Assembly: GCA_046590195.1 (NCBI GenBank)
Contig: JBKJTP010000102.1
Span: forward strand, 1-40,972
DNA length: 40,972 bases
DNA from: Candidatus Kapaibacterium sp.
GTDB taxonomy: Bacteria > Bacteroidota > Ignavibacteria > Palsa-1295
Direction of reading: 5' to 3'
Part shown: positions 1-25,797 of the stretch, one piece after another
How the letters are laid out: every line of letters begins with the position of its first letter
Numbering within the stretch: position 1 is the first letter of the stretch
Program-made: the position numbers and the translations under genes
Notes under the pieces: generated by a model
Database searches by the model: none
Told to the model about the DNA's origin: nothing
Seen by the model: only the letters and a program-made list of their open reading frames with translations

Positions 1-130
1 TGCGCCATTCACGGGATCTCGAATGTAAATAATGCGCCATTACGAACTTGGACCTCTCGGCACTTCACAAGGTATAGACCACATCTTTGTTCCAGCAAGC
101 TAATTCTATGAGATTAAGAATCTAGTGCTT

Positions 131-153
131 AGGCCACCCGTCAGGATTCGAAC
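131..153 (-). other. tRNA 3'-end-like fragment (possible att site remnant)
   Basis: Minus strand reads GTTCGAATCCTGACGGGTGGCCT, resembling a T-loop plus acceptor 3' strand; the rest of a tRNA is absent. Confidence 0.35.
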
Positions 154-265
154 ATAAAGTTTGCATTGGTTGCGGGACCTGACTTTGGCAAGGGTGAAAT
201 GCTGAGTGTTTGAACCGTGGCGCACGCTTGGAGGATTGTGGTGTTGGAAGTCAGAGCAGAATTAA

Positions 266-1193
266 TGATCTGGTCCTGACTTAGTGGACAGTGGGAGTGC
301 TCGCGATTGTCAGGTGATGGTTGTTGCTTGATGTTCAAACTGTTCGGGTGATCGATAGTTCAGACTGGAGTGCAGCCTGGTTCTGTTGTAGAAGATCTCG
401 ATGTAGTCGAAGACCGATCGTTCTGCTTCCTGCCGCGTCTGATAGTGCTTCGGTGTTTCAGCTTTCAGCGATCGAAAGAACGACTCCATGGGTGCGTTGT
501 CCCAACAGTTGCCCTTGCGGCTCATGCTCTGCTGCAGGCCGTGTGTTGTCAGGATCGAGCGATACTGCTTCGAGGAGTACTGACAGCCTCGATCCGAGTG
601 ACAGATCAGTCCAGGTTGCGGCTGCCTGCGAGCAATCGCTTGACGGAGTGCCATGATCGGACCGGTCGCTTCAAGGTCATGCTGCATGCTCAGTCCGATG
701 ATCTTGCGTGAGTAGAGATCCATCACGGTCGCGACGTAGAGAAAGCCTTCACCGGTCGGGACATAAGTCATGTCGCAGACCCAGACACGATCGGCCTGAT
801 GCACAGTGAACCGTCGATCCAGCACGTTCGGTGTTGCTTTGGCATGATCGGATGTCGTTGTCCTGACAAACGCTTTGTGAGGCTCTACAGTAATGCCGTG
901 ATCCTACATGAGCTGACGCACACGATGTCTCGAACACGGATGTCCCTGTTGCTGCAATGCCGCGGTCATCCGGCGGCTGCCATAGACCCTGCGGCTGTGT
1001 ACATGCACGCTCTTCATCGGTTCGACCAGCGACCAGTTCGCCTGCTGGCGCTTGGCGACCACCTGCTTGAGATACCGGTAATACCCGCTCGGGCTGACGC
1101 GCAGCACCTGGCAGAGCACACGTACCGGATACATCCCAGCATAGAACTCGATCAGGCTAAACTTCACTGGTGGTCCCTCGAAAAGATAGCCGT
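266..1193 (-). mobile_element. Truncated IS3-family insertion sequence
   Basis: Terminal IR-like TGATCTGGTCCTGACTTAGTGGACA at 266 resembles IS3 ends; orfB with rve integrase core; only the last 9 codons of orfA (TAIFSRDHQ*, 1164-1193) remain; the other IR is missing. Confidence 0.9.
310..1167 (-). pseudogene. IS3-family transposase OrfB with in-frame stop
   Basis: ORFs 904..1167 (HTH part, YGSRRM) and 310..825 (WVCDMTY, HSDRGCQY, DNAPMESFF) are in the same frame, separated by a TAG at 904-906. Confidence 0.9.
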
Positions 1194-1221
1194 CCCATCA
1201 TGAGCAATGCCAGGCAGACTC

Positions 1222-1490
1222 CTATAGAATCTGCTGACCTCGTATTGATCAATAGCAGATCGTCTGATGTGGTTAATGCGATCCTGCTCTCACGTATCAC
1301 GTATCGAAAGATGATCCAAAACTTGCTTTGGGCAACAGACTATAACGGGATAGCACTACCCCTAGCGGCAGGTGTCGCCATCCCTCTCGGCATTGGAGTC
1401 TCTCCTGCCATAGGTGCTGAATTCATGAGCGCATCGACGGTCATTGTCGCTCTAAATGCCCTTTCGCTTAAACGAACCACGTTGATTTGA
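1222..1490 (+). pseudogene. C-terminal fragment of a P1B-3 Cu-ATPase (diverged copy of 9852-10120)
   Basis: Colinear high nucleotide similarity to the 3' end of the intact ATPase (IESADLVLINS...MSASTVIVALNALSLKRT); no N-terminal part. Confidence 0.9.
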
Positions 1491-1607
1491 CCCAGAATTT
1501 CTTTGCTTGACGCTTTTATTGATAGGAGCCGGATCTCTGTGTGGGAGGCCGTAACGCGGATCTCCTGTTTAGTTGTCACTTGGAACGGTAGTTAGGCATA
1601 GCATGTC

Positions 1608-1670
1608 CTCGCCAGGTGTTATCCGTATCACTTTGTTCTTCGTCTTGTTCACATACCAGATGGCCGGGTC
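1608..1670 (-). pseudogene. Short fragment of the secreted propeller gene (copy of 5419-5481)
   Basis: Encodes AIWYVNKTKNKVIRITPGE versus AIWYVNKTKNKVVRITPGE in the intact gene. Confidence 0.85.
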
Positions 1671-1777
1671 CAAGTTTCCGCCTGGCACGCCTTCGCACAC
1701 GGTCGATACACCGGAATTTCGCCAGACCTTAATACCAGCGAAAACCTGGGCATTCCTTGACATTCATTCCACCCTCG

Positions 1778-2182
1778 TTATGGTGTAACAGTTAGTGTTA
1801 GCGTCATCCCAAGATCGGGATGAGTGAGCACAGGGCATAAAACGTCATACGTGCCTGGAGCTAAACTGACAACCAGGTCAGCGGATTCTCCTTCTTTTAG
1901 ATGACGCTCAAGTTCCTTCTCGACACCGTTGCCCTTAATCTTGAAACTATGCATTTTACCACTATTCGAGATTCGGAATGTCGTATTTCCTGCTGGTATT
2001 GTTGTCGGCATGTGAATCTTCATCTCGTAGAGCGCTACCTCGACGATTTGACCGTCCGCAGTCTTTATGATACGTTGACCGCTTTGTGCGTTTTGAGAGG
2101 TCTTGCATGAGGTCAATGTAAGCGATGTGATTACGAGGATTGCCGAAACAGCAATGGTGGAAAAGCGGATGCGGATGTTCAT
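1778..2182 (-). CDS. Cupredoxin-domain lipoprotein (type-1 copper site)
   Basis: Lipobox-like LTSC; MHSF plus C-terminal YDVLCPVLTHPDLGM giving His/Cys/His/Met ligands. Confidence 0.85.
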   Translation of the reverse strand: MNIRIRFSTIAVSAILVITSLTLTSCKTSQNAQSGQRIIKTADGQIVEVALYEMKIHMPTTIPAGNTTFRISNSGKMHSFKIKGNGVEKELERHLKEGESADLVVSLAPGTYDVLCPVLTHPDLGMTLTLTVTP

Positions 2183-2398
2183 AGATTTATTGTTTGAACA
2201 TTCATCAGCAAATATTGCGCCTCACTAGACCGTGTGTACTTATTCCGCTACAGGTCAACCTTCTCCAGCAGTATCGCATACTGCTGGGTTTCTTAACTTA
2301 AAATGGATGGATCCCAACGATTTGATGAAGGGAGGAGTCATTCGTCTTCACAACTTGACGGCTGGTAGCCCGATTGCGCTATGTTTCACTGGATCCTG

Positions 2399-4798
2399 CT
2401 ATCTAACAATAGTTACAGGCACGCTGATGGTTTTGGTGTCAGATCGAATAGTGAGTCTGTAGATACCAGAAGGAATTGCGAGCATGCTCACGTTCAACAA
2501 GTGACTGCCAATTGAATATGAACCCTCGACGATCGTCTTCACATTCCGGCCCAGCGCATCCGTCAAGATTAATCTCACATACTTGTTTGCGAACAGTCCC
2601 AGTTGAACGTTCATCGACTCGTTAACAGGATTTGGGAATACGTGAAGCGTTGGCTCATTCGAGAGGCTAGCAGGAGTAGCGTCAACTCCTGCTGTTGGTC
2701 CTTCGAGTCCGGATGCTAGAGTTGTAATGCTCTCGGCAGGCAGCGTGAGACGGATCATGCTCTTTCCGTTTGCCGCGAAGGAGGGCAGAGGTGACCATAG
2801 GCGACCGGCTGTTGACTGCTCACCTACAACGGAGCCAGCTAGTGAAGTACCATCGATTGCGATCTCAGTTATGCGCTCGCTGGTTGCATTATTGATTATT
2901 ACGAAGACTAGCCTTCCTTGTGTAGTGTCTCGAAAGGTTGTAATCTGGACAAGCGAGTCGCTGCTACTGGATTCGATACGGACTGCACCACGCGGGATCC
3001 AACGTGCATAATGCCCAATAGCGTAACCCATGCCACTGATATAGACTCGATCCGTATCGACCAAGGCGATGCTGCTTGATTCGGTGAAGAAATCGATACC
3101 TCGGCCTGCGAAATGCTCTTCATGCGAGCGGCGATCCATCATCGCATTCATTCCATAGTATGCAGAAGCATCTGCATATTTGAACTCATCATGAATATGG
3201 ATAGCCCGAGCGCGAACATTCTCAAAGGCTTCGAACGAGTAATCGTTATTGCCTGGACCTTCCGATACTTCCACCATCCATATAGGGATGCCATACTGCT
3301 TACCAAGATTGCGGAGCTTTTGTCTGTTGGCGAGCTCAGATTGTATTGGGAGTCCACGACCAGATTCCTGCAAGATCCTTCGCACACTGGAGTATGGCGA
3401 TTCATATGGATACGGGTGATATGAGATCGCACCTACATACTGGCGGGCTTCTACGTCCTCAAGGATAGACTTCGCGACATCATAGGATCGTACAACGGTT
3501 TCTTCCCCTGGCACAATCAGTTTGCCTGTACCAAATCCGGCATCCTTAAGTCTCCTTCCAATCCGCTTGACAAGGTCAACGAGTAATTGATTTGTCCCTC
3601 CTACGATCTCCCTGTTGCCGCTAGTAGGCTCGTTCCATGGAGCCACCCAGCGCGGCGTGATGCCATAGACATCTCTCCAGCGAAGCATACCGGCAGTAAC
3701 GAACTCTGCACATTCATCCAGGTAGCGCTCATAGTCTTGTGTGCGGAACGGATCGAGAAAAGCAAGTGAACCCTTTGTAGAAAGCTTATTGGCGAGCGAG
3801 AAATTGTCGAATCCGTATGGCGTTGCAAGATCAACTACTTTCTCCTTCATCGCATCCTGTGCAATCCAGCTAAAGCCATCCTGATTGTAGACGAATGGGT
3901 CATCGTTATCATTGCGACGCTCATTCCACAGATCGACAGCGTTCGAGGGTGTCTCCATAATGCCGGGCTCTAGCTGTCCCATAGTGAGCTTGACCTGATT
4001 GTATAATTTTTCGATAGCGTCGGCTCGTTGTACCGCCGATAAGTAATCGTTGGTACCGTACGCTAGCGACAATGTAGTTGCGCCAAAGCCTTCCATCTGT
4101 TGATGGGTCACATCAGTGTTCACGCGGATCGATACAGGAATTGCAGGACTGGGAATGTCCTCCAAATCTCCAGCACCCCATGATTCGAAAACCGGGGCTG
4201 GATAGACCGGTGAAAAACCGATTGTGAAACGGAATGCCATGCCAGGCTGACCTACACCTACGATTGCATCGGGCGATGTATCGGTAGCGGTCAACGTAGC
4301 GATTCCATTGTGATAACCAGTTATGGTCATACCTTGGATCTCAATCCGCAAAGTATCGCCAGGCAAAGGCATAGCACCCTGCATGGAGGCTAAGATACGA
4401 GTTTGGGCAGTTGGAACACCGTCGTACTTGATCTCCCATTGACCACCTCGATCATTCCAATGAAAACCGTATCGAGCCTTATCACTTGCCCTTCTTCTCA
4501 CGAAGACCTGGGTCAGTATACTATCGGCTTTGTTAGTAGAGATGATGGCTTCACTAAACTGATCCGAGGCAAATACTACATGGTGCCATTCAACAAGCCC
4601 GAACAAGGTCGGGCTAGAGGTAAGACCCAAATCGCTATTATTGATGGTGCCAACTCCTGAGCCACCGAAGAGTACGGTCCAATTGGATCCTAGTGTCGGA
4701 CGTTCGAAGTCGTCAGAAACGTAAGTCTGAGCGCCAAGTCTAGGGGCAAGAATGAGAAGCAGAAGGGCAAGTACAGAGACGGTGCAAGGGTGGTTCAT
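2399..4798 (-). CDS. Secreted clan-A glycoside hydrolase (GH30-like) with N-terminal beta-sandwich and T9SS C-terminal domain
   Basis: Signal peptide; HQQMEGFG, PWNEP (acid/base), IWMVE (nucleophile), TLPAESITT; C-terminal VFPNP...DALGR...SGIY sorting-domain pattern. Confidence 0.8.
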   Translation of the reverse strand: MNHPCTVSVLALLLLILAPRLGAQTYVSDDFERPTLGSNWTVLFGGSGVGTINNSDLGLTSSPTLFGLVEWHHVVFASDQFSEAIISTNKADSILTQVFVRRRASDKARYGFHWNDRGGQWEIKYDGVPTAQTRILASMQGAMPLPGDTLRIEIQGMTITGYHNGIATLTATDTSPDAIVGVGQPGMAFRFTIGFSPVYPAPVFESWGAGDLEDIPSPAIPVSIRVNTDVTHQQMEGFGATTLSLAYGTNDYLSAVQRADAIEKLYNQVKLTMGQLEPGIMETPSNAVDLWNERRNDNDDPFVYNQDGFSWIAQDAMKEKVVDLATPYGFDNFSLANKLSTKGSLAFLDPFRTQDYERYLDECAEFVTAGMLRWRDVYGITPRWVAPWNEPTSGNREIVGGTNQLLVDLVKRIGRRLKDAGFGTGKLIVPGEETVVRSYDVAKSILEDVEARQYVGAISYHPYPYESPYSSVRRILQESGRGLPIQSELANRQKLRNLGKQYGIPIWMVEVSEGPGNNDYSFEAFENVRARAIHIHDEFKYADASAYYGMNAMMDRRSHEEHFAGRGIDFFTESSSIALVDTDRVYISGMGYAIGHYARWIPRGAVRIESSSSDSLVQITTFRDTTQGRLVFVIINNATSERITEIAIDGTSLAGSVVGEQSTAGRLWSPLPSFAANGKSMIRLTLPAESITTLASGLEGPTAGVDATPASLSNEPTLHVFPNPVNESMNVQLGLFANKYVRLILTDALGRNVKTIVEGSYSIGSHLLNVSMLAIPSGIYRLTIRSDTKTISVPVTIVR

Positions 4799-7035: not shown

Positions 7036-7068
7036 ACTGTAACCACTAAGACATTAGCGGCGTCATAG
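7036..7068 (+). promoter_or_regulatory. Putative ECF-sigma promoter ACTGTAACC-N16-CGTCATAG (copy 1)
   Basis: ECF-type AAC/CGT boxes directly upstream of the sigma gene; same boxes and spacing at 11814. Confidence 0.8.
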
Positions 7069-7086
7069 TGCAGATCAAGAGATCAA

Positions 7087-7620
7087 ATGACCAACGAAGA
7101 AGTACAAAAGCAGATATTAGCACACCGATCTAAGCTTGTGGCCTATGTCGCGGGTAAGGTTCAGAACGTGGATATTGCAGAAGACATCGTGCAAGAAGGG
7201 TTACTCAAAGCTTTGCGGTCAGCGCCTGATCTCAAAGAAGATGAGAAATTGCTCCCGTGGTTTTACCGCATACTCCAAAATGCTATCATTGACGAGTATC
7301 GAAAGGAGGGTAGGTTAGCAAAGCGGCAGGAGGCTTATGCCATTGAACACACATCGATAATGACGGATGAGGATAAATCAACCGTTTGTGAGTGCTTCAA
7401 GGACCTGATGCCTTCGCTTAAACCCGAGTATGCAGAGGTGCTTGATGCTTTGGACCTCAATGAGGAGGATCCAGATGCGGTTGCAAATCGCCTTGGTGTC
7501 ACTCGGGGAAATCTCAAAGTGCGAGCGCACCGGGCTCGTCAACAGTTGAGATCGAAGCTTGAGGAGACCTGCCAAATGTGTGCACGACACGGGTGTCTGA
7601 ACTGTACTTGCATTCGGTAG
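7087..7620 (+). CDS. CorE-like (ECF44) metal-responsive ECF sigma factor
   Basis: Sigma2 (AEDIVQE, PWFYRILQNAIIDEYR) and sigma4 (VRAHRARQQL); linker CxC (VCEC); Cys-rich tail CQMCARHGCLNCTC; no adjacent anti-sigma. Confidence 0.88.
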   Translation: MTNEEVQKQILAHRSKLVAYVAGKVQNVDIAEDIVQEGLLKALRSAPDLKEDEKLLPWFYRILQNAIIDEYRKEGRLAKRQEAYAIEHTSIMTDEDKSTVCECFKDLMPSLKPEYAEVLDALDLNEEDPDAVANRLGVTRGNLKVRAHRARQQLRSKLEETCQMCARHGCLNCTCIR

Positions 7621-7640
7621 CCAATGATCTCACTTAACGC

Positions 7641-7862
7641 ATGGATTATACGCATATGGTTACAGAAACAATCAAGATCGGGGGGATGAGTTGCGCAGGT
7701 GCTTGCGTGCGCAGCGTTAAACAGGCACTCAACGAAGTCGATGGTGTGAAGATAAACGAAGTTGGACTCGGGTTCGCCAGCGTCACATACGATGAGGAAG
7801 CTGATGTTCGAGATCTCACACTTCAAGCGATTAAGCAAGCTGGCTTTAAGCCTGTGTCTTGA
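7641..7862 (+). CDS. CopZ-like HMA copper chaperone
   Basis: About 70 aa, GGMSCAGAC...VKQAL.EVDGV...AIKQAGF HMA pattern; start may be 7656. Confidence 0.85.
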   Translation: MDYTHMVTETIKIGGMSCAGACVRSVKQALNEVDGVKINEVGLGFASVTYDEEADVRDLTLQAIKQAGFKPVS

Positions 7863-7870
7863 ATCCTGAG

Positions 7871-7905
7871 AGGGAGGTCGGGCTCGGCTTCCCTAATTTT
7901 TTTTT
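7871..7905 (+). terminator. Terminator-like hairpin between chaperone and ATPase
   Basis: agggaggtcg-ggct-cggcttccct followed by aa and T9. Confidence 0.7.
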
Positions 7906-7930
7906 GCTGTGTCCAATCTGCACCATACCA

Positions 7931-10120
7931 ATGAATCACGCTGATCATAGTCATCACAACCGGCACGATCCTAAACCTCACCATTTGGATATGCCAGGCA
8001 AGCCCGAACCGGTTGGGCAGGACCCATTGGATGAGACGCTGGGCACTGATAGCGAGCACAAGCCTCATGTTGATGCTCATGCTCAAGCAGATCACTCGGC
8101 GCATGTCCATGATATGCATGCAGGACACAGTTCTGACGAGCATGCAGGACACAGTTCTGATAAGCACGCTGGACATAGTCCCGAGCTTTTCAAGCAAAAA
8201 TTCTGGACGAGTCTCGCTCTGACAATCCCGATCCTATTCTTTGATCATCACATTCAAGCTGCGATAGGCCTCAGAGGAATCGACTTTCAAGGCTCTGAAT
8301 TCATAACTCCAGTACTGTCTGTGATCCTTTTCATTTATGGAGGATCAGCATTCCTGCTCAGTGCCCGACACGAGTTAGCGAATCGCCAGCCTGGTATGAT
8401 GACGCTGATCTCGCTAGCCATCTCGGTTGCGTTCCTGTACAGCGTTGCCGTTAGCTTCGAAATGATAGGAGGGATGCCGCTCTATTGGGAGCTAGCTACT
8501 CTGATCGACATCATGCTACTCGGCCACTGGATCGAGATGTCATCGATACAGGGAGCAGGTAAGGCACTGGAACATCTCGCATCTCTTGTGCCGAATACAG
8601 CGCACGTTGTTCATGGACAGGCTATTCATAACATGGAAGTGAAAGCTGTGCGTCCTGGGGATCGAGTGCTTGTGCGTCCGGGTGAACAAGTACCACTTGA
8701 TGGCAAGATCGTGGAAGGTAAATCTAGCTTTAACGAGTCATTTCTTACCGGCGAGTCAAAACCTGTCCAGAAAGTCGAAGGTGATGAGGTACTGGCAGGC
8801 TCAGTAAATGGTGAGGGGGCAGTGACATTTGAGGTGTCCAGAACCGGGAGTAACACGACTCTCAATCAGATACAGAGACTGGTTGACGAAGCACAAAAGT
8901 CTCGGAGCAAATTCCAGAACCTTGCGGATCGTGCTGCATCGTGGCTGACATATATCGCCGTCGGTTCAGGCCTGATCACGTTGCTTGCATGGCTCATAGG
9001 AGGAGCGACGCCGGATTTCGCTATCATCCGAACTGTTGCCGTTCTTGTGATGGCATGTCCGCACGCACTCGGACTAGCGATCCCGCTGGTGATCGTGAAC
9101 GCCACATCGTTAGCTGCAAGGCATGGAATCCTGGTCCGAAATCGTGAGGCCTTTGAACGCGCACGGGACATTAAGCAAGTAGCGTTTGATAAGACTGGCA
9201 CGCTAACAGAAGGCGCATTTGGGCTGGTGGATATCAGCACATTAATTGATCGCCACGAGGCTCTTAGGCTCGCAGGTTCCCTGGAGGCGAGATCTGAACA
9301 TCCGCTGGCTCGGGCGATTGCAGCGTCAGCCATAGAAGTTAAAGCCAATCTTTCAACACCTTCTGATTTCAAAGTCGATGCAGGACGAGGTGTCGAAGGT
9401 GAGCTTGAAGGAAGACGCTACTACATTGGCAGTCTAAACTGGCTCCAGGAGCGGAAGATCAAGATTGGAAACGACTCATTGGAGTTTATTCGAGACTCAG
9501 AAAGCAAGGGCTACACAACAATAGTACTCTTTGATGACCACTCCGCCTTAGCCACATTTTCGCTTGGTGATAAGATCAAGTCGGACGCCAAGCTCGCAAT
9601 TCAGACACTACAATCACGAGGCATCGAGCCTGTGATGATCACGGGAGACTCTGAAACGGTAGCTAATAGTGTGGCCAGAGAACTTGGGATAAGATCAGTG
9701 CGTGCACGAGTCCTGCCTCAAGACAAAGCAGCAATTGTCAAAGAACTGAGCAAACAAGGAGCCGTTGCCTTTGTCGGAGATGGCGTCAACGATGCCCCGG
9801 CCCTTCTAGAGGCCGATCTGGGAGTGGCAATCGGTGCAGGTACCAATGTCGCTATTGAGTCTGCTGACCTCGTATTGATCAATAGCCGACCGTCCGATGT
9901 GGTGAATGCGATCCTGCTCTCAGGGATGACATATCGAAAGATGATTCAGAACCTACTCTGGGCAACGGGCTACAACGCGATTGCTTTGCCTCTAGCGGCT
10001 GGCGTTGCCATCCCGCTCGGCATTGTAGTCTCTCCTGCCATCGGTGCTGCATTCATGAGCGCATCGACGGTCATTGTCGCTCTAAATGCCCTTTCGCTCA
10101 AACGGACCAAGTTGATATGA
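7931..10120 (+). CDS. copB: P1B-3 (CopB-type) copper-exporting ATPase
   Basis: His-rich N-terminus, TGES, CPHALGL, DKTGTLT, SEHP, GDGVNDAP, YN and MSAST; ATG at 7931 preferred. Confidence 0.93.
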   Translation: MNHADHSHHNRHDPKPHHLDMPGKPEPVGQDPLDETLGTDSEHKPHVDAHAQADHSAHVHDMHAGHSSDEHAGHSSDKHAGHSPELFKQKFWTSLALTIPILFFDHHIQAAIGLRGIDFQGSEFITPVLSVILFIYGGSAFLLSARHELANRQPGMMTLISLAISVAFLYSVAVSFEMIGGMPLYWELATLIDIMLLGHWIEMSSIQGAGKALEHLASLVPNTAHVVHGQAIHNMEVKAVRPGDRVLVRPGEQVPLDGKIVEGKSSFNESFLTGESKPVQKVEGDEVLAGSVNGEGAVTFEVSRTGSNTTLNQIQRLVDEAQKSRSKFQNLADRAASWLTYIAVGSGLITLLAWLIGGATPDFAIIRTVAVLVMACPHALGLAIPLVIVNATSLAARHGILVRNREAFERARDIKQVAFDKTGTLTEGAFGLVDISTLIDRHEALRLAGSLEARSEHPLARAIAASAIEVKANLSTPSDFKVDAGRGVEGELEGRRYYIGSLNWLQERKIKIGNDSLEFIRDSESKGYTTIVLFDDHSALATFSLGDKIKSDAKLAIQTLQSRGIEPVMITGDSETVANSVARELGIRSVRARVLPQDKAAIVKELSKQGAVAFVGDGVNDAPALLEADLGVAIGAGTNVAIESADLVLINSRPSDVVNAILLSGMTYRKMIQNLLWATGYNAIALPLAAGVAIPLGIVVSPAIGAAFMSASTVIVALNALSLKRTKLI
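8117..8185 (+). repeat. 24-bp coding tandem repeat (HAGHSSDE/HAGHSSDK/HAGHSPE)
   Basis: catgcaggacacagttctgacgag, catgcaggacacagttctgataag, cacgctggacatagtcccgag. Confidence 0.9.
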
Positions 10121-10262
10121 CCAAATTGTCTAAGCGTGTAACTTTGTTGCCTCAGATGCATTAGATTGTGTCAGGCTTCAATCGTGAAGTGGCTTCCCTT
10201 GAAGCTTCTTCGTTTTGAGCAGTTGTAACTCCTTAATCGTGATTCGAAATCACCACTTCTTT

Positions 10263-11756
10263 ATGCGTCAGTTTCTATCACTATTGTTGCTTTTCGTTGC
10301 GACAGATGTCTTTGGACAGGAATTCTCGATGCCGGTAGCATTGGACGTAGGTTCTCAGGCACAAAGTAGGTCACCAGAGGTCCATTCCACAAGAGGTAAG
10401 GTGTACGTGGCCTATTTCGAAGGAGTTCTTAACATTCGATTCAGACGGTCCACCGACGGAGGTATCTCCTTTGGTACCCCTAGCCTTGTCGTTGAGGGCT
10501 TGAGCAGCAACCATTATAACATGATGTTGCAGCGCGCCCCTAAGTTCGTCGTTGATCCATCTGGACTGATACATCTCACGTGGACAGAAGATAGACACAT
10601 GATGCAAGGAGATGTTTGGTATGTGCGGTCCACTGATGACGGAAGTACCTGGACTCAACCAGTATCACTCTCGGGTAGTGGTGACTCAATGAAGTACGCT
10701 CAGGACTTTGCTTCAATCGCCTCCGATTCATCCGGAAATCTCTACGTGTCTTTTCTGGATTTTCGAGATCGGGTTCGAGGGCTCAGTGACTATACTCAAC
10801 TTTACCTTACGAAATCAACGGACAAAGGCTTGACGTGGTCTGAGCCGAAGCGAATCAGTTACTACACCTCGGGAGATGGGGGAACCTGTGAGTGCTGCAA
10901 ACAGGAGATCGCTGCAAGCAAAGAAGGTAAGGTTTATGTAGCCTATCGCTCCAATATTGATAACATCCGAAACATTTACATGGTAAGGTCGCTCGATCAG
11001 GGTTCGACGTGGAAGACGGCCGAAAGGGTACAAGACGGAGATTGGGAGCTTATGGCATGCCCTACACAAGGACCGAATGTCGCTCTTGATCCCGATGGAA
11101 ATCTACATATGACTTGGCGTGACGCCAGGAACAAGGATGGCAATCCGATAGGCAACCGGGTCTTCTATGATGTTTTTGACGATGGGACGGAGACGTCATT
11201 CCCAGATCGCGAAGTTACACCTATCAATGAAAACGGTAGCTGGCCAGCAATTACAATGGTAGAAGAGGCCAGCGGAATGTGGTATCCCGAGATCTACTAT
11301 CAGAGTAGCGGCATGAACGGAGCGATCAAGGTCAGACGATTCAATGGTGCCTCCTTTACTCCAGCCGAATCTATCGTTGATCGGAATTCCAGCTCAGAGC
11401 TTGTGAGCGTCACGGTTGACCAATCGAATAGAGTGCATGCCGTGTGGCAGGAGAGCGAGACCGGCTCGACAGATAAGGGAGACATCTATTATTCTCGATC
11501 TTCAATCGCCGCAGGTGTATCTCCGGCTGGGTCCCTTGAATATTTCATAGGCGTTAAGAATAACGTTCTAAAGTTTGATCATCAGACTAACAGGAGTTAC
11601 GAATTTACAATCTATGATATTTTGGGCAGGTCAACTATGAGAGGTACTATCTCTTCAGATCAAGAAATTGCGCTCAATGTGTTGCCAGCTGGCTTCTATA
11701 TGATCAAGCTGAATAGTGATGGACTTGAGAGCATCTCAAAGTTTACTATTAGGTAG
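10263..11756 (+). CDS. Secreted BNR/Asp-box beta-propeller with CECC and CPxxGP motifs and T9SS-like C-terminal domain
   Basis: Signal peptide; Asp-boxes STDGGISF, STDDGSTW, STDKGLTW, SLDQGSTW; TCECCK; MACPTQGP; IYDILGR...AGFYMIK. Confidence 0.8.
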   Translation: MRQFLSLLLLFVATDVFGQEFSMPVALDVGSQAQSRSPEVHSTRGKVYVAYFEGVLNIRFRRSTDGGISFGTPSLVVEGLSSNHYNMMLQRAPKFVVDPSGLIHLTWTEDRHMMQGDVWYVRSTDDGSTWTQPVSLSGSGDSMKYAQDFASIASDSSGNLYVSFLDFRDRVRGLSDYTQLYLTKSTDKGLTWSEPKRISYYTSGDGGTCECCKQEIAASKEGKVYVAYRSNIDNIRNIYMVRSLDQGSTWKTAERVQDGDWELMACPTQGPNVALDPDGNLHMTWRDARNKDGNPIGNRVFYDVFDDGTETSFPDREVTPINENGSWPAITMVEEASGMWYPEIYYQSSGMNGAIKVRRFNGASFTPAESIVDRNSSSELVSVTVDQSNRVHAVWQESETGSTDKGDIYYSRSSIAAGVSPAGSLEYFIGVKNNVLKFDHQTNRSYEFTIYDILGRSTMRGTISSDQEIALNVLPAGFYMIKLNSDGLESISKFTIR

Positions 11757-11777
11757 GCTTGTCTAATCGATTGACAT

Positions 11778-11805
11778 AAAAGGCTGTCTTGGACAGCCTT
11801 TTTTT
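11778..11805 (+). terminator. Rho-independent terminator
   Basis: aaaaggctgtc-ttg-gacagcc followed by a T run. Confidence 0.85.
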
Positions 11806-11813
11806 GTTCAGAA

Positions 11814-11846
11814 ACTGTAACCGGAGGAGATTTGGTGGCGTCATAG
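11814..11846 (+). promoter_or_regulatory. Putative ECF-sigma promoter ACTGTAACC-N16-CGTCATAG (copy 2)
   Basis: Same boxes and spacing as 7036-7068; lies between a terminator and copA. Confidence 0.8.
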
Positions 11847-11861
11847 GGGAAATTGATCCGT

Positions 11862-14132
11862 ATGATTCAAACTAAAATAAATAATACTGCGTCCCGGCAA
11901 TTGCCATCCGACGCTTCTACGATAGTCGTCGAAGGGATGACTTGCGCCTCATGCGGCCGCCATGTGGAGAAGTCACTTAGCAAAGTGCCTGGTGTCCTGA
12001 AGGCCAGTGTCAACCTCGCGACCAATAAAGCATCCGTACAACACGATCCATCCGTTCAACGGGAGGCTCTCTATCGAGCGATAGAACATGCAGGCTATCA
12101 TCCTGTCACTGAGGGCGAACCTCAGCAGAGTGCGAGCAGCTTGCACAAGAATCCATTTAAAAAGCCGCTGATCTTAGCAGCCCTGCTTACGCTGCCGATC
12201 TTTCTGCTCGAGATGATACCAATGATCATCCCTGCGGTCGGACAGTGGCTCTACGGTGTGCTGGATCATTCTACAAGCTCTACGATGGTATTCTTGCTTG
12301 CTACTGCGATCCAGTTCGGGCCGGCAAAGCTGTTCTATTCAGCTGGTTGGAGAGGGTTGATCCATGGCAGCCCGAACATGAATACCCTTGTCATGCTCGG
12401 AACAAGCGCGGCTTATGGTTACTCGGTTGTGCTGATGTTCTTCCCAACATGGTTACCAAACACTGGTGGCCACGGATACTTCGAGGCGGCCTCGATGGTG
12501 ATCACGCTGGTATTGCTAGGAAAGCACCTGGAGCACCTCGCAAAGTCGCGCACATCAAGTGCGATCCAGAAGCTCATCGCGCTTCAACCTCGAACAGCGA
12601 AGGTCGTGCTCGATGGCAAAGAGAGTGAAGTCCCCGTGGAGTCAGTAAAGGTGGGCGATCACGTGAGGATACGTGCTGGTGACCGAGTACCACTTGATGG
12701 AGAGATCGTTGGAGGAATGTCATTTCTAGACGAGTCGATGATCTCGGGCGAGTCGCTCCCGGTTGAGCGAAGCGTGGGGGATCCAGTGATCGGTGGTACA
12801 CAGAATTTGAGCGGCAGCTTCGTCTTTGAGGTGAAACAGGTTGGTACCGAGACGGTGCTTTCGAAGATCGTCAAAATGGTTGAGGACGCTCAAGGCAGCA
12901 AGCCGGCCATCCAAGCGCTTGCCGACAAAGTGATAGCTGTGTTCGTCCCGATCGTGCTAGGCCTGGCATTGGTGACATTTCTCGCATGGCTCCTCTTTGG
13001 ATCAGGCACAGCGAGTAACTTTGCGATCGGCGCTGCTGTGGCGGTGCTGATCATTGCATGCCCGTGTGCGATGGGACTTGCAACTCCGACATCCATCATG
13101 GTATCAACTGGCCGAGGAGCTGAACTCGGAACGCTGTTTCGCAACCCAGAAGCCTTGGAAACATTGGCCCACGTCGATGTCTTCGCCTTCGACAAGACCG
13201 GCACTTTGACGCTGGGCAAACCCGAGCTTACCGATCTACAAGTGGCCGATGGGAATGATGAAGAGTTGGTGCTCCAAGTATTAGGCTCGCTGGAAACGCA
13301 TTCAAATCATCCTGTTGCGCAAGCCGTAGTCAGAGCTGTACTGGAGTCAGGCACTGAGATCGTGGAGGTCGAGCAATTTCAAGAGATTGCGGGACGAGGG
13401 GTTTCCGGCAAAGTTGGAGCAATGGTATACTATGTTGGCTCGCACTCGTGGATGACGGAGCTTGGTCTTTCGACCGATGGGCTCGATCAGCCGTATCTAC
13501 GCTTTGCAGAAAAGGGCATGAGCACTGCGTTCCTGGCTAGCTCCGAGCGTTTGCTTGCGGTCCTTGCCGTGGCTGATGTTGTCAAGGAGTCTTCGGCGAT
13601 CGCTATTGAGCGACTGAAAAACGAAGGCAAAGAAGTTGTGATGATCACAGGAGACGATGAGCGTGTAGCTCGGGCGATCGCGCGCTCGATCGGGATCAGT
13701 AATGTGATCGCTGAGGTCTTACCTCAGGATAAGGCTAACATCGTGAAGGAATTACAGCGAGGAGGCAGGAAGGTTGCATTCATAGGCGACGGGATCAACG
13801 ATGCTCCTGCACTTGCCCAGGCCGATGTAGGAATAGCGATGGGTACCGGCAGCGACATAGCGATCGAAACTGGTGACGTGATCTTGATGAATGGCGATGT
13901 TACTTCAGTCTCAAAGGCAGCGAACTTGTCTCGGCTTACGATCAAGAACATCAAGCAGAACCTGTTCTGGGCGTTTGCCTATAATGTTCTGTTGATACCT
14001 GTGGCGGCCGGCGTTCTCTACCCATCGTTTGGGATCACGCTAAGCCCTGCGCTTGCGGCAGCTGCCATGGGGATATCCAGCATCTTTGTACTAGGAAATT
14101 CCCTCAGACTCAAGAAGGTCGCATTGGGCTAA
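11862..14132 (+). CDS. copA: P1B-1 Cu(I)-exporting ATPase
   Basis: GMTCASC HMA domain, YFEA, CPCAMGLATP, DKTGTLT, GDGINDAP, YN, MGISS. Confidence 0.95.
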   Translation: MIQTKINNTASRQLPSDASTIVVEGMTCASCGRHVEKSLSKVPGVLKASVNLATNKASVQHDPSVQREALYRAIEHAGYHPVTEGEPQQSASSLHKNPFKKPLILAALLTLPIFLLEMIPMIIPAVGQWLYGVLDHSTSSTMVFLLATAIQFGPAKLFYSAGWRGLIHGSPNMNTLVMLGTSAAYGYSVVLMFFPTWLPNTGGHGYFEAASMVITLVLLGKHLEHLAKSRTSSAIQKLIALQPRTAKVVLDGKESEVPVESVKVGDHVRIRAGDRVPLDGEIVGGMSFLDESMISGESLPVERSVGDPVIGGTQNLSGSFVFEVKQVGTETVLSKIVKMVEDAQGSKPAIQALADKVIAVFVPIVLGLALVTFLAWLLFGSGTASNFAIGAAVAVLIIACPCAMGLATPTSIMVSTGRGAELGTLFRNPEALETLAHVDVFAFDKTGTLTLGKPELTDLQVADGNDEELVLQVLGSLETHSNHPVAQAVVRAVLESGTEIVEVEQFQEIAGRGVSGKVGAMVYYVGSHSWMTELGLSTDGLDQPYLRFAEKGMSTAFLASSERLLAVLAVADVVKESSAIAIERLKNEGKEVVMITGDDERVARAIARSIGISNVIAEVLPQDKANIVKELQRGGRKVAFIGDGINDAPALAQADVGIAMGTGSDIAIETGDVILMNGDVTSVSKAANLSRLTIKNIKQNLFWAFAYNVLLIPVAAGVLYPSFGITLSPALAAAAMGISSIFVLGNSLRLKKVALG

Positions 14133-14257: not shown

Positions 14258-14647
14258 GTGAATAAGCTTTTCTCCATACTCCTTCTTTTCGCTGTCGCCC
14301 TTTCGAGCGTCGGCATGAGTGTCAATCAGCACTCATGCAAGATGTCGAAAGAGGAGATCGAGGCCAGTATGTGCGAGATGTGCTCAAAGGAAGACCAAGG
14401 CGAGCCACTGGAATCTCCACAGAATAGTAAGAAGTCCTGCTGTTCGAACAAGGCTGTTCACCTGCGTCTGGATACGGACGCCACCAGCACAAAGGCTCAA
14501 TTCACACCGCAGCCGATCATTTCCGAGCCACTCGTAGATATTCTCCTGGAATCGGCGTGGGTGAACGCAGAGGCTGATGGACCCACCCAGATCGAGGCTC
14601 TCCCCGCTTTCCCGCTCTCAGAGGAACACACCGTTCTAAGGGTGTAG
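14258..14647 (+). CDS. HYC_CC_PP/DUF2946-like small Cys/His-rich exported protein
   Basis: Hydrophobic N-terminus, HSC, CEMC, SCC, Pro-containing tail ending VLRV; first gene of the metal-efflux operon. Confidence 0.65.
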   Translation: MNKLFSILLLFAVALSSVGMSVNQHSCKMSKEEIEASMCEMCSKEDQGEPLESPQNSKKSCCSNKAVHLRLDTDATSTKAQFTPQPIISEPLVDILLESAWVNAEADGPTQIEALPAFPLSEEHTVLRV

Positions 14648-14781
14648 TACGCCCTTTTCCTTCGTAGCACATCCCTCGAATTGGGAGTTTCGGCTACCCC
14701 TGCTACCCCAACAACTTTATAGATGACGCCGTCCTTCAGGAAAGGCGCGTCCATTTGCATTCATCCTTTTATCTTAGTTCA

Positions 14782-15798
14782 ATGATCACACGATCTTCAA
14801 TTTTTGCGTGCGCAATACTAATTTCGCTTTCCCTTACGGCCTGTTCGAAGAGCGAGACCACCCACGCCGATCATAAAGATAGCAGCGGCCATGCTCATGA
14901 CGCAGTTCATACCCATGATGCAAGCCACCCTCACTATACCTGTCCGATGCATCCTGAGGTGGTCAGCGAAACACCGGGTATCTGCCCGAAGTGTAAGATG
15001 GATCTCGTCCTACAGGACAATGCACAGCAGGCAGGGTTGCACGATGCATCCAAGTTCAAGATGGATCTCGAGACCTTGCCAGCAGAGGTTGCGCCGGGTC
15101 AGCCGGCGATCCTGAAGTTCATGCCGAAGAACGCGGTTGATAACTCGATGCTCAAGGATCTTCAGATCGTACATGAGATGCCGATGCATTTGTTGATGGT
15201 ATCAAGCGACCTGAGCTGGTTTGCACATGAGCATCCAGAGGCGAAGCCTGATGGCTCGTATGAGTTAGCCTACAAATTCCCCCGCGCCGATAATTATCTG
15301 TTCTTTTCAGACGTGACCCCGCAGGGTGCAACGAAGAGCCAGGTCTTTAAGCTGGCGAAAACGGTGGGTGCTGCCGCGGAGTCAAAGCCGAACCTCGTAG
15401 CGAATGCAAGCTTTAAGGCAGAAGGGTATGAGTATCAGCTTGTCTCTGAACCCTCGAGCCTTGTGGCTGCGAAGTCGGCGACAGTTACGATCCGCGTGAG
15501 TAAGGGAGGCAAGCCAGTAACGAACATCGACAATTATCTTGGTGCGCTTGGCCACATGGTGATCATCAGTGAGGACAAGGAGGAGTTCTTGCATGCGCAC
15601 CCAGAGGATCACGCGCATACCGATGCCGAGAAAAAGGATCATGGACATAAGCACGAGGTCGTGACAGCGCCTGCTGCAAAGGGACCGAACGTCAGCTTCA
15701 TGACGCTCTTTCCAAAAGCCGGCAAGTACAAGGTATGGGCACAGTTCAATATCGATGGCAAGGTACGCACGGCAGAATTTGTCGTATCGGTAAGCTGA
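14782..15798 (+). CDS. Heavy-metal-binding lipoprotein
   Basis: Lipobox LTAC; His-rich linker; YTCPMHP...CPKCKMDL domain; two repeated domains with HEMPMH...HEHP and GHMV...HAHP. Confidence 0.85.
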   Translation: MITRSSIFACAILISLSLTACSKSETTHADHKDSSGHAHDAVHTHDASHPHYTCPMHPEVVSETPGICPKCKMDLVLQDNAQQAGLHDASKFKMDLETLPAEVAPGQPAILKFMPKNAVDNSMLKDLQIVHEMPMHLLMVSSDLSWFAHEHPEAKPDGSYELAYKFPRADNYLFFSDVTPQGATKSQVFKLAKTVGAAAESKPNLVANASFKAEGYEYQLVSEPSSLVAAKSATVTIRVSKGGKPVTNIDNYLGALGHMVIISEDKEEFLHAHPEDHAHTDAEKKDHGHKHEVVTAPAAKGPNVSFMTLFPKAGKYKVWAQFNIDGKVRTAEFVVSVS

Positions 15799-17081
15799 TG
15801 TTGAAAGTCGCTCTCATTGTCGCTTTCAGTCTCTTCGCTGTAAGTGTCCAGGCTCAGATCAGGACACTTACAGTCGAGGAAGCGATCATTCGCGCCCAAG
15901 ATCGTGCGCCGGAGAAGTTGCGGACCGAATCGCTCGAACGTCAAGCGCAAGCCGTTCGACAGAATGCTTCAAGGGCCTTTGACAAGCGACCTGAATTAGA
16001 GGTCGAGTATATCACTGAAGCTCCGTTCGGTGAACGCGACTACGAGTTGTCCGTGGGTATCTTGCAGGAGATACCGGTCTGGGGTGTGTCGGCTCGTCGT
16101 GGCGATGTCGCGAGCGCGCTTGAGAAGGCAAGTGTCGAGAGTCGCAACACTCTCAACAACGCGATTGCGCTTCGCACCAGGTTGCTCTACAATCGAGCAT
16201 GGTCTCTCTCGCAACAGATCGAGTTGGGTAACCGATTGATCGCTACGTCGAACAAACTAGCTGCCGCAACCGATAAGCGACTGTCGGTAGGCGATGTCTC
16301 TCGACTCGAGAGAAACGCTGTCGTGCTCGAGACGAATTCGATCAGGATCGAGCATGAGCAGGTACACAGCAACTACGAGCAAGCGATCGGTGAGCTCGAA
16401 GCATTGACCGGTCTTGAGTTAAACGACGTTGAGCTCACGCCCGACAGATCGAGCACGATCGCGATAGACAGCTTCACTGTAAATGCGCATCAACTCTCGC
16501 CGGAATGGATTAGACTTCGGAATCAGACCGATATCGCACGCGCACAGCTCGAGCTGGCTAAGGCAGAACGGTCAGGCAACCCGACGTTGGGGTTGCACTA
16601 TTCGGAAGATCTCCTCACGATCGGTGACGAGGACATCGCTTACGATCCAGGAGCTTCTCATACTATTGCAGGCATCACGTCGCGGGGTCGCTCCGCAGGA
16701 CTAAGTTTTTCGATGGAGCTTCCGATCACGATACCGGGATTGTGGGGTCCCAGTAATTCGGAGGTCATCGAGCGCGAGACTGAACTTCGCTTGCTTGAAG
16801 CCGATCTCCGGGAATTTGAGATGCAGCTTGCAGGCAGAGTTGCGAGGTTACGTCCGAAATTATCTAGGATCACCCGTTCGGTAGGCATTTATCAAGAGTC
16901 GGTCGATTTGATCAACGAGAATTACGAGCTGCTCGATCGAGGATATGAAGGTGGCGAGCTTTCAGTAACGGAGCTACTCGTTGGCAGACAGCAGTTGGTC
17001 GAATTACAAACAAGACAGCTTGAACTCTTGAAGGAAATGCAGGAGGCTGAGATAGAGCTACAAAGTATTATCGGCAGATGA
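15798..17081 (+). CDS. TolC-family outer-membrane efflux protein (CzcC/CusC-like)
   Basis: Signal peptide, helical repeats (VGDVSRLE, YEGGELSVTELL); TGATG coupling to the upstream gene. Confidence 0.85.
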   Translation: MLKVALIVAFSLFAVSVQAQIRTLTVEEAIIRAQDRAPEKLRTESLERQAQAVRQNASRAFDKRPELEVEYITEAPFGERDYELSVGILQEIPVWGVSARRGDVASALEKASVESRNTLNNAIALRTRLLYNRAWSLSQQIELGNRLIATSNKLAAATDKRLSVGDVSRLERNAVVLETNSIRIEHEQVHSNYEQAIGELEALTGLELNDVELTPDRSSTIAIDSFTVNAHQLSPEWIRLRNQTDIARAQLELAKAERSGNPTLGLHYSEDLLTIGDEDIAYDPGASHTIAGITSRGRSAGLSFSMELPITIPGLWGPSNSEVIERETELRLLEADLREFEMQLAGRVARLRPKLSRITRSVGIYQESVDLINENYELLDRGYEGGELSVTELLVGRQQLVELQTRQLELLKEMQEAEIELQSIIGR

Positions 17082-17758
17082 AAAACATTCTTTTAGTAAT
17101 TCTTCTCAGCATTGTAGGCGCATTCAGTACGAATGCGATCGCTGGTGGTGGCGATGATCACACGCATGGCGATGGAGCAGTCGCTGTTACAGCCTCTACC
17201 GCGAAGGACGGCCAACTGCGAATTGTCAGCTATCCTGGTGGTCTTGAAGTGTTCGTAAAGTATCCTGCACCGAAGCTCAATGAGCCGGTCATTGGACGAC
17301 TGTTCTTTGCGGACTATGCGACAAATCATCCGGTCGATCCGACGGGTATTGAGTTGTCGTTTCCGGGCGCATTCGGAGCGAAGGTGACGAAGCAACCTAC
17401 AAAGATCAGCGATGGAGTTTATGAGTTTGTCGCTCTCTTTGCCCGGGATACAGGCCACACTGCTTTATTGCGATACACGTACGGAGCTGCTGAGCAGCTC
17501 GCATCGCTCTCACCATTCTATGCAGGAGCATCGGCAACGAGAGCGATGTCAGCCACTGGAGGTAATTCGCTGGCTCAAGACGAGGACGGGATTTTCCCAA
17601 CCTGGATACTCATCCCGATCGCGATCGGTCTTGCACTTCTATTTTACGTGCTCTTCACGCGTCGGAGAAAACGTCTGCAATTTGTGAAGTCGCAATCGAG
17701 TGCATCGACTATTTCGAAAGCAAACGCATCCACCGTCACACAAACGATATCAAAGTGA
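17078..17758 (+). CDS. Hypothetical periplasm-facing protein with N-terminal DDHTH and C-terminal membrane anchor
   Basis: Signal peptide, GGGDDHTHGD, TM helix followed by RRRKR; overlaps both neighbours by 4 nt. Confidence 0.75.
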   Translation: MKNILLVILLSIVGAFSTNAIAGGGDDHTHGDGAVAVTASTAKDGQLRIVSYPGGLEVFVKYPAPKLNEPVIGRLFFADYATNHPVDPTGIELSFPGAFGAKVTKQPTKISDGVYEFVALFARDTGHTALLRYTYGAAEQLASLSPFYAGASATRAMSATGGNSLAQDEDGIFPTWILIPIAIGLALLFYVLFTRRRKRLQFVKSQSSASTISKANASTVTQTISK

Positions 17759-18891
17759 AATATAAAAACCATATCGGGATGATCCTTTGCGTGACGGGCC
17801 TCTTTGCCGTCACACGTGCGCTTGCGCATGGCGATGAAGATCACTCGGCTCCGAGTACAAACGCAACTCCAGCTGCGAGTGACGCGACGGCCGTTGGGTA
17901 TATCAGCATTGTGAAAGAGTCACAGTTCGCTCTCGGAATTCTGACAGAGCGCGTCGCTGAAAGAACGATGGCAATGACCCGCACAGTCACTGGCAGGATC
18001 ATCCCGACTGCAAACGGCCGCGCCGAAGTCTATGCACCACAGGAAGGCCGCATCATTTCTTCACGTGCCTGGAAAATCGGGGATAGAGTCACCAAAGGTC
18101 AGGCGCTATTCTCTGTTGAACAGACGCTAACCGGGACTGAACGATTGGGACTTGAGCGCGACCTCATCGAAGCGCAGCGCGAAGTAGAAGAGGCTTCTCG
18201 CGACTACAACCGCAAGCGCTCGCTTGAAGGTGTAGTCGCTCAAAAGGAGATTGAGTTCGCGCGTATTCGTTTGGATGGTGCAAAGGAGCGGCAGGCAGCA
18301 CTACAGCGCGTGCTCTCGCAGGGGACAAAACCAGTTACTTGTACAGCACCGATCTCAGGAAGCATCAGCTCGGCCGATGTAGTGGGCGGAGAGTTCGTCG
18401 AAGTAAGCAAGCGTTTGCTGGAGATCGTCAACACTTCTGAGGTTTGGGTTGAAGCACAGTTCTTCGAGTCAGATCTTGCAGCGATGCCGAAGGGCACAGG
18501 CGCTATTGTCACAAGTCCTTCGGCTGTGGGTACATACGTCGGGTCGCTGATATCGGTTGGAAACGTGATCAGCGCTGAATCGAGAACGGCACCTGTCATC
18601 TTTGCTGTCGCGAATCGCAATGAGCAATTGAAGATCAATGCAAGCGCAGAGATCGCGATCAGCAGCGGAGTCGATCAATCAGTGATCGCCGTACCGAAAA
18701 CAGCGATTGTCCGATCTGGCGGCAAATCGTATGTCATCGTCCACCGCGGGCCGGAAGAATTTGAACCTGTCGAGGTCATGAGTGGCGCAGGTGCGGATGA
18801 GACGCATGTCCAGTTAACAAGCGGTGTCAAAATTGGCGACAAGGTCGTGACAACTGGCCTCACCCATTTCAAGGGCAACCTACCACAGTAA
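17755..18891 (+). CDS. RND membrane-fusion protein (CzcB/CusB-like)
   Basis: AHGDEDH N-terminus; APQEGRI, APISG, VWVEA, VPKTAI, GDKVVTTG motifs. Confidence 0.9.
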   Translation: MKYKNHIGMILCVTGLFAVTRALAHGDEDHSAPSTNATPAASDATAVGYISIVKESQFALGILTERVAERTMAMTRTVTGRIIPTANGRAEVYAPQEGRIISSRAWKIGDRVTKGQALFSVEQTLTGTERLGLERDLIEAQREVEEASRDYNRKRSLEGVVAQKEIEFARIRLDGAKERQAALQRVLSQGTKPVTCTAPISGSISSADVVGGEFVEVSKRLLEIVNTSEVWVEAQFFESDLAAMPKGTGAIVTSPSAVGTYVGSLISVGNVISAESRTAPVIFAVANRNEQLKINASAEIAISSGVDQSVIAVPKTAIVRSGGKSYVIVHRGPEEFEPVEVMSGAGADETHVQLTSGVKIGDKVVTTGLTHFKGNLPQ

Positions 18892-18902
18892 GAAGCGAAT
18901 TC

Positions 18903-22444: not shown

Positions 22445-22497
22445 TCACATTTACTTGGACCGCGGATGAATGCCGCAGGCCCGCATCATCATATTCT

Positions 22498-23073: not shown

Positions 23074-23088
23074 CCACAGGAGTCGCAG

Positions 23089-24593: not shown

Positions 24594-24627
24594 AGCGCCG
24601 CCTTTTGCCAGGGCGGCGTTTTTGTTG
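24594..24627 (+). terminator. Terminator hairpin between convergent genes
   Basis: gcgccgcctt-ttgcc-agggcggcgt followed by ttttgttg. Confidence 0.8.
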
Positions 24628-25796: not shown

Positions 25797-25797
25797 G

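Follow-up and report, generated by a model that had tools for sequence, protein, structure and literature searches.

We analysed a 40,972-nucleotide (nt) stretch of DNA from Candidatus Kapaibacterium sp. (assembly GCA_046590195.1, contig JBKJTP010000102.1, positions 1 to 40,972 of the forward strand; hereafter the window), in which the gene for an extracytoplasmic function (ECF) sigma factor resembling CorE of Myxococcus xanthus is followed in the same direction by genes for a copZ-like metallochaperone, a CopB-type ATPase, a BNR-repeat protein and a CopA-type ATPase (Table 1). The original prediction for this locus was that two matching sites, one before the sigma factor gene and one before copA, are promoters read by that sigma factor, which would sense copper without an anti-sigma factor.

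Table 1. Coordinates of the genes, predicted promoters and terminator-like hairpins of the copper locus within the window.
Feature	Position	Strand	Evidence or detail
Predicted promoter P1	7036-7068	+	-35 ACTGTAACC, 16-nt spacer ACTAAGACATTAGCGG, -10 CGTCATAG; 5' of sigma factor gene, predicted autoregulatory
ECF sigma factor, CorE-like, 177 residues	7087-7620	+	Pfam Sigma70_r2 and Sigma70_r4_2
copZ-like HMA metallochaperone, 73 residues	7641-7862	+	Pfam HMA 9e-07; NCBIfam CopZ models below cut-off
Terminator-like hairpin, copZ/copB gap	7871-7904 (7871-7894 without the T run)	+	10 pairs and T run; -16.7 kcal/mol, z -2.4
CopB-type P1B ATPase	7931-10120	+	CPH motif; TIGR01511 599.9 bits (cut-off 397)
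BNR-repeat protein with type IX secretion system (T9SS) sorting tail	10263-11756	+	Pfam BNR_2, Por_Secre_tail; between copB and copA, co-directional
Intrinsic-terminator-like hairpin	11778-11808 (stem 11778-11802)	+	11 pairs and T run; -17.5 kcal/mol, z -5.0
Predicted promoter P2	11814-11846	+	-35 ACTGTAACC, spacer GGAGGAGATTTGGTGG, -10 CGTCATAG; boxes and spacing as in P1; directly 5' of copA
CopA-type ATPase	11853-14132	+	Pfam and NCBIfam; TIGR01511 603.9 bits (cut-off 397)
Ten co-directional genes 3' of copA, possible extension of the P2 unit	14258-24537	+	Pfam
Strong terminator-like hairpin 3' of multicopper oxidase gene	24594-24630	+	11 pairs, 7 of them G-C; T run

Both 33-nt copies of the pattern ACTGTAACC-N16-CGTCATAG were found on the + strand exactly where they had been placed. 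Allowing up to two mismatches, a scan of the window still returned these two matches only, and none of 100 dinucleotide shuffles contained any match. A search of the whole genome (3,383,231 bases in 330 contigs), which the original prediction had proposed as a check, confined the full pattern to P1 and P2, with none at non-metal genes; as single boxes, TGTAACC and CGTCATAG occurred 204 and 72 times, respectively. The spacers of P1 and P2 were rightly described as largely different, being identical at 5 of 16 positions (including the GG adjoining CGTC), and the flanks are unlike each other past a shared AC; P1 and P2 are therefore not a duplicated segment. P1 ends 18 nt before the ATG of the sigma factor gene, and P2, also as described, directly follows a terminator, starting 11 nt past a hairpin whose stability was equalled in 0 of 200 shuffles and at which the BNR-repeat gene ends. 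The distance from the end of P2 to the first possible copA start is 6 nt (possible starts being TTG at 11853 and ATG at 11862), so that both sites directly precede a start codon on the coding strand. In each, an AAC -35 and a CGT -10 element lie within the 16-18 nt distance of ECF-type promoters, the gap being 17 nt from AAC at 7041-7043 to CGT at 7061-7063 in P1 and likewise from 11819-11821 to 11839-11841 in P2; a gap of this length is inside the usual ECF range. When the contigs of four DNA sequencing runs were compared, P1 was covered with zero differences, and a single contig, differing in 9 places whose positions were not listed, spanned the P2 region; the comparison yields no footprint.

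The sigma factor has the minimal ECF architecture, with PF04542 at residues 12-76 (7.4e-14) and PF08281 at residues 102-154 (4.8e-07), both above cut-off, and a match of 66.9 bits to NCBIfam TIGR02937 (sigma70-ECF; cut-off 42.9). Its best NCBIfam match was to the SigZ models, below cut-off (104.7 vs 168.65 bits). [quoted passage not shown] The window protein carries the CxC in its linker (C101-E-C103) and a C-terminal Cys-rich domain, C162-x2-C165-x4-C170-x2-C173-x-C175 (Cx2Cx4Cx2CxC), with the caveat that this tail is shorter and has five Cys. In an alignment of 20 homologues (43-86% identity to the window protein), C101, C103, C162, C165, C173 and C175 were invariant, and C170 and Ala166, the residue after the second tail Cys, were at least 90% conserved. 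All seven Cys columns also aligned with two Myxococcaceae homologues, in an alignment of 8 sequences in which C101 and C103 were invariant (8/8). The closest solved structures (5uxx, SigH, SigE and SigW) match residues 10-161 at most and leave the Cys tail uncovered. The neighbours of the sigma factor gene are an open reading frame (ORF) of 61 residues upstream and the copZ-like gene downstream, and no match to an anti-sigma family was found among the window proteins scanned with Pfam, the upstream 61-residue ORF lying outside that scan. The description of the protein as a CorE-like ECF sigma factor, probably without an adjoining anti-sigma gene, is supported by these features, by which it is predicted to be a CorE-type ECF factor and thereby to add a member to a system already known. 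Among named homologues, the closest carry the label Kapabacteria; a search of 24 genomes of the same family did not detect the protein, and just 2 of another 16 from the class contained it.

The copper genes claimed for the flanks of the sigma factor gene were likewise confirmed by domains and motifs. CopA has an ACPCA (CPC) motif and an N-terminal HMA domain with CxxC, and CopB has an ACPHA motif and 21 His within its first 120 residues, so that both show the CPC or CPH motif together with an HMA domain or His-rich stretch that marks P1B copper ATPases; we take the former to belong to subclass P1B-1 and the latter to P1B-3. HMA chaperones normally carry CxxC, and the copZ-like protein has an unusual C-A-G-A-C (CxxxC) metal motif. 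CAGAC is also present in copZ of a close relative (L085), and the HMA proteins 3' of the family promoter in three other loci (L016, L023 and L031) have CxxC.

A total of 80 loci from 80 other species encoding sigma factor homologues with 39-57% identity (1.03 Mb) were searched for the motif, as had also been proposed. The strict pattern TGTAAC[CT]-N15-17-CGT[CT] occurred at 50 sites, cf. 1.9 +/- 1.3 expected from 30 dinucleotide shuffles (maximum 5) and 4 sites in the reversed sequence of the same loci; 12 of the 50 lay within 250 nt before the sigma factor gene, 20 just after it and 18 elsewhere in the loci. With the relaxed TGTAA[CT] pattern, 54 of 80 loci had a site adjacent to the sigma factor gene (26 before only, 28 after only, none on both sides), and control anchors in the same loci had 1/345 and 4/345. 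A position weight matrix (PWM) trained on 32 sigma-adjacent sites of other species, with the window left out, reached a score of at least 14 next to the sigma factor gene in 46 of 80 loci but in only 6 of 474 control bins. TGTAAT-N15-CGTCAGC, at about -46, is present in many of the loci that lack a strict match. By our own lineage assignment of the 80 loci, a site precedes the sigma factor gene in 17 of 24 Verrucomicrobiota loci and follows it in 12 of 15 Chloroflexota loci, and the 13 loci of the FCB group are split between five with the site before and five with the site after. The consensus had been proposed as that of an FCB-group organism; instead, it is shared by a clade spanning Verrucomicrobiota, Chloroflexota, Nitrospirota and others.

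The link between motif, sigma factor and copper genes is observed across these species. Among 37 ORFs behind strict sites, 11 encode P-type ATPases (8 CPH proteins with His-rich N-termini, 1 CPC protein and 2 ORFs cut short), and other copper-type products are 4 YHS proteins (2 of them apparently from one genome in duplicate), 1 HMA chaperone and 2 cupredoxins. The rest are 3 DUF4396 proteins, 1 DUF2703 protein, 1 DUF5676 protein, 4 sigma factors, 1 thioesterase and 9 proteins without a family assignment. The order box, sigma factor gene and then copZ or copA recurs in FCB relatives; one Kapaibacterium locus has a box, sigma factor gene, HMA gene and cusCBA-like genes, and two Rhodothermales loci have a box, sigma factor gene and copA, one of these also bearing another box 5' of paired HMA and OEP genes. 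Other arrangements were also seen. Two Manganitrophus-type loci, L006 (8704 and 8760) and L007 (5423 and 5479), have two tandem boxes 56 nt apart before a His-rich CopB gene. Two Leptospirales loci, L024 (5619-5662) and L016 (9207-9270), have back-to-back divergent boxes, with a copA or HMA gene one way and a gene for a cupredoxin-like or unknown small protein the other way. In Leptospiraceae and Verrucomicrobiota-type loci (L017 7169-7783, L034 7309-7857, L062 7345-7926 and L042 811-1317), the gene directly 3' of the family promoter encodes a DUF4396 protein (three loci) or a DUF2703 protein (one locus), by which position these products are candidate copper-response proteins.

Close relatives in metagenome contigs amounted to only 4 loci, all short. 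Three short contigs encode sigma factor homologues with 81-87% protein identity. Upstream of the gene in two of them (L084 and L086), the alignment fails except for TGTAACC, a G..G.CGTC block at the same N16 and a short leader before the ATG, i.e. the boxes and their spacing are kept and the spacer and flanks have diverged. The third contig (L085) has the sigma factor gene, copZ, a hairpin and copB in the same order as the window, and its hairpin (655-690), at the equivalent place, has another sequence, a T or U run and a stability of -14.0 kcal/mol (z -2.6).

Taken together, we infer that this CorE-type sigma factor senses copper by its own cysteines and directs RNA polymerase to TGTAACC-N16-CGTC at P1 and P2, a reading to which we give a probability of about 0.78. 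Most likely, cytoplasmic copper would be sensed through the linker CxC and the five-Cys tail, without an anti-sigma factor. From P1, the sigma factor gene itself and the copZ-like chaperone gene would be transcribed, and since the sigma factor would promote its own synthesis, this would constitute positive feedback. Transcripts passing the hairpin in the copZ/copB gap would continue into copB and the BNR-repeat gene. P2 would drive copA and perhaps also the cus-like, DUF305 and multicopper oxidase genes that follow it in the same direction, as far as the terminator at 24594; the transcript starts and extents given here are those predicted from boxes and hairpins. Only part of the claim that P1 drives the sigma factor gene, copZ and perhaps copB stands as it was made: the box directly precedes the sigma factor gene, whereas what precedes copB is a stable hairpin and not a box, and its link to P1 would therefore be by read-through only. 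Either copB is reached by such read-through or it has an unrecognised promoter. Through partial termination, the copZ/copB hairpin may set the ratio of sigma factor and chaperone to pump.

The genes 3' of copA abut or overlap one another, with no strong hairpin before that at 24594-24620, and include genes for a Cys-rich secreted protein, an HMBD/YtkA-like protein, OEP, CusB-like and CusA-like proteins, a DUF305 protein, a T9SS protein and a multicopper oxidase. When the window was scanned with the PWM, no ECF box came to light for these ten genes, which are possibly part of the P2 transcript. Directly 3' of copA, the first of them (14258-14647) encodes a 129-residue protein with a signal-peptide-like start, several Cys (CxxC, CC) and no Pfam family.

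The biology as such is already familiar from Myxococcus, where a CorE-type sigma factor turns on copA and copB together with a chaperone and an oxidase. DNA binding and activation by CorE depend on metal, Cu(II) turning it on and Cu(I) off. M. xanthus CorE activates copB, cuoB, MXAN_3427 and, partly, copA, and its promoters, as defined in silico, combine an AAC -35 box with a G conserved at -10, the two being 16-18 nt apart (PMC3107203). The window protein resembles CorE (former ECF44) in the linker CxC, the C-terminal Cys-rich domain, the probable lack of a co-encoded anti-sigma factor, the targets copB, copA and a multicopper oxidase, and the AAC -35 box and 16-18 nt spacing. It differs in belonging to another phylum, in being just 33-42% identical to Myxococcaceae homologues and in its shorter tail, which has 5 Cys and ends two residues past the last of them; a clear CGTC -10 box is present here, cf. 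only a conserved G named for CorE, and a full box precedes the sigma factor gene here, cf. partial autoregulation of CorE. The residue after the second CRD Cys decides the metal, being Ala185 in CorE (copper) and Cys174 in CorE2 (Cd/Zn), and a C174A mutation switches CorE2 to copper (PMC4937300). CorE2 (ECF238s15) shares the architecture, with essential CxC and Cys-rich domain and no anti-sigma factor, but has Cys174 where the window protein has Ala166; by analogy with CorE, which has Ala at this position, Ala166 points to copper. Metal genes lay near 52 of the 65 ECF44 members known in 2016 (PMC4937300).

In the current classification, ECF238 merges ECF24 and ECF44 and includes Bacillus subtilis SigZ (PMC7826278). 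The window protein is like this group in its short Cys-rich C-terminal extension, probable lack of an anti-sigma factor, predicted role in metal homeostasis and best NCBIfam match. A 2022 review holds that the CxC-bearing ECF44 clade should be split off again (PMC8999054), and the motif conservation found here, judged from sequence, would fit such a separation. We found no printed promoter consensus for the CxC-bearing ECF44/ECF238 clade, although subscription journals and supplements may hold one. Another comparable system is ECF16 (Caulobacter crescentus SigF and Bradyrhizobium EcfF), with a GTAACC...CGTA promoter and a heavy-metal or oxidative stress response (PMC7826278), which differs in being another ECF group, with a six-helix membrane anti-sigma factor (NrsF/OsrA) and no Cys-rich tail.

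Several observations weigh against the proposal that the CorE-type sigma factor senses copper and reads P1 and P2. Scanning the window with the PWM gave no ECF box for copB, and this gene, the commonest target elsewhere, sits 3' of a conserved terminator-like hairpin. An adjacent site was lacking in 26 of the 80 homologous loci. ECF238 is described as having promoter motifs that are not conserved and as not being autoregulated, with genomic context conserved only in subgroup s2 (PMC7826278), and CorE2 is not autoregulated at all, CorE only partly (PMC4937300); set against the group description, the CxC-bearing relatives analysed here conserve the motif in 54 of 80 loci, in 26 of them before the sigma factor gene. 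None of the 11 sequencing runs with this DNA is recorded as RNA. In Myxococcaceae, homologues were present in 11 of 26 genomes (E <=1e-20, 30-42% identity), and 13 Myxococcaceae loci with 1.5-kb flanks had no PWM site above 12.1; they contained three TGTAAG-N15-CGTC sites and one TGTAACG site scoring 9.6. One of the TGTAAG-N15-CGTC sites lies directly 3' of the sigma factor gene of a locus in which cusCBA, sigma factor gene, one further gene and a multicopper oxidase gene are laid out like the published corE-cuoB region, and is suggestive only as a possible link to CorE promoters.

The PWM adds to these adverse points. Genome-wide, P2 scored 21.0 (rank 2) and P1 20.4 (rank 3), ranks that speak for the two sites, but the top site, at 22.9, was TGTAACC-N16-CGTCAGCC between atpE and atpF (ATP synthase c and b; contig C89 of this genome, G000, 21671-21702). 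Shuffled genomes reach scores of 17-21, i.e. the PWM alone does not separate sites from chance, and the atpE/atpF site is probably chance because its score falls within the shuffled-genome range. There were 58 sites scoring at least 12 in the genome, cf. 46, 80 and 71 in three shuffled genomes, and hence no enrichment, because of which the readable regulon in this genome is taken, from the sequence, to be limited to the two promoters and what they would transcribe. Loose patterns gave 4 extra matches, inside or before non-metal ORFs, and no third site is claimed. A third copZ (CxxC)-copA pair, on contig C228 (about 1-2400, minus strand), has no ECF box and has a 7-bp inverted repeat, ATAGGAC-N6-GTCCTAT, upstream, which suggests a separate regulator and a housekeeping copper pump. 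In favour of the CorE-type reading, no CsoR, and no CueR above cut-off, was found in this assembly, which is 91.8% complete.

Among the alternatives, the one that survives best is that sigma factor and promoters are as proposed but the signal is another thiophilic metal (Cd/Zn or Ag), or else thiol/redox stress, instead of copper, and that the copper genes are cargo under the same control. The tail of CorE2, which responds to Cd/Zn, is very similar, and a single residue decides the metal (PMC4937300); in addition, the window tail has 5 Cys where the CorE2 CRD is reported to have 6, and the gap ahead of its second Cys is one residue shorter than that given for CorE2, both of which count against the copper assignment and make the residue mapping approximate. 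Nevertheless, we consider a non-copper signal unlikely, as recognisable targets here and in other phyla are all of copper type (CPH/CPC ATPases, CopZ/HMA and YHS proteins, cupredoxins and multicopper oxidase) and the specificity residue, Ala166, is that of CorE and well conserved in the clade.

It is still less probable, with only a slim chance, that the boxes are read by a different ECF sigma factor of this genome and that the adjacency of the CorE-like gene is incidental. A copper-responsive CorE-type factor at P1 and P2 is favoured over it because, across the 80 species, the motif travels with the CorE-like sigma factor family and not with genome background, the motif stands only at the two copper-island genes, and a search of 24 same-family genomes did not turn up the island with its sigma factor and boxes. 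These observations have to be set against the -35 boxes of TGTAACC type (GTAACC/TGTAAC) described or predicted for ECF16, ECF120, ECF127 and ECF231 (PMC7826278), the presence of at least 4 other ECF-like genes in the genome, and two loci (L039 and L048) in which TGTAACC-N-CGTTTAA sites precede a different sigma factor gene, all of which speak for another reader of the boxes. That the boxes are not promoters at all, being a chance likeness, a small duplicated element or a repressor operator, is highly improbable. The boxes are identical to the base, as a recent duplication could yield, but the motif was matched in none of the shuffles, spacers and flanks differ between the two copies, conservation in relatives is box-specific, and a fixed, unconserved spacer, AAC/CGT cores and a pre-start position fit an ECF promoter and not a palindromic operator.

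Beyond this locus, CxC-bearing CorE-like sigma factors of at least 10 phyla might share one promoter code, TGTAA(C/T)-N16/17-CGT(C/T), with lineage-specific wiring and with residue 144 tracking the sixth -35 base, an extension that we advance tentatively and at slightly less than even odds. With such wiring, most Verrucomicrobiota loci and half of those of the FCB group would have the box before the sigma factor gene, for feedback, and Chloroflexota and Nitrospirota loci would have it after that gene and in front of one for a His-rich CopB pump. In the sigma4.2 helix, N142, V145, R146 and R149 are nearly fixed and residue 144 is variable (K144 in the window protein), being K in 31 of 32 TGTAAC loci but in 3 of 23 TGTAAT loci, where N and T are commonest. 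As evidence, however, this co-variation was rejected, as it comprises only 2 independent contrasts on supported branches (sign test p 0.5), and contact of K144 with the sixth -35 base is hypothetical.

The copper genes occupy one part of a mixed contig. At its left end lie an integrase-core (rve) gene (310-825) and a piece encoding the C-terminal part of a copper P-type ATPase (1203-1472), both apparently left over from an insertion or rearrangement next to the copper genes, and the region looks like an acquired copper island. A gene for a MerR-family regulator with a B12-binding domain (24855-25808) is divergent from genes for amine-oxidase/desaturase-type proteins, an aldehyde dehydrogenase, an acyltransferase and a glycosyltransferase (25963-32511); we take the regulator to be CarH-like and the neighbouring genes to look like a light-controlled carotenoid cluster. 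Further along (33444-39699) come a gene for a nosZ-type nitrous-oxide reductase and, after it, nosL, nosD and genes of an ABC transporter type, so that the genes of a copper-demanding enzyme share the contig with the copper-export island.

The locus is a clean example, readable from sequence, of a metal sensor made of one protein, together with its targets, in an uncultured and little-studied soil lineage that is Kapabacteria-like. What began as an observation of two sites became a family-wide promoter consensus with which copper regulons in metagenomes can be predicted, and this consensus qualifies the statement of ECF classification that the group has neither a conserved promoter nor autoregulation. 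If one promoter code is indeed shared across these phyla, copper regulons could be read from the sequences of many uncultured bacteria, with DUF4396, DUF2703 and YHS proteins of unknown role among their members, and the sigma factor and its promoter would form a tunable, anti-sigma-free, metal-switched pair.

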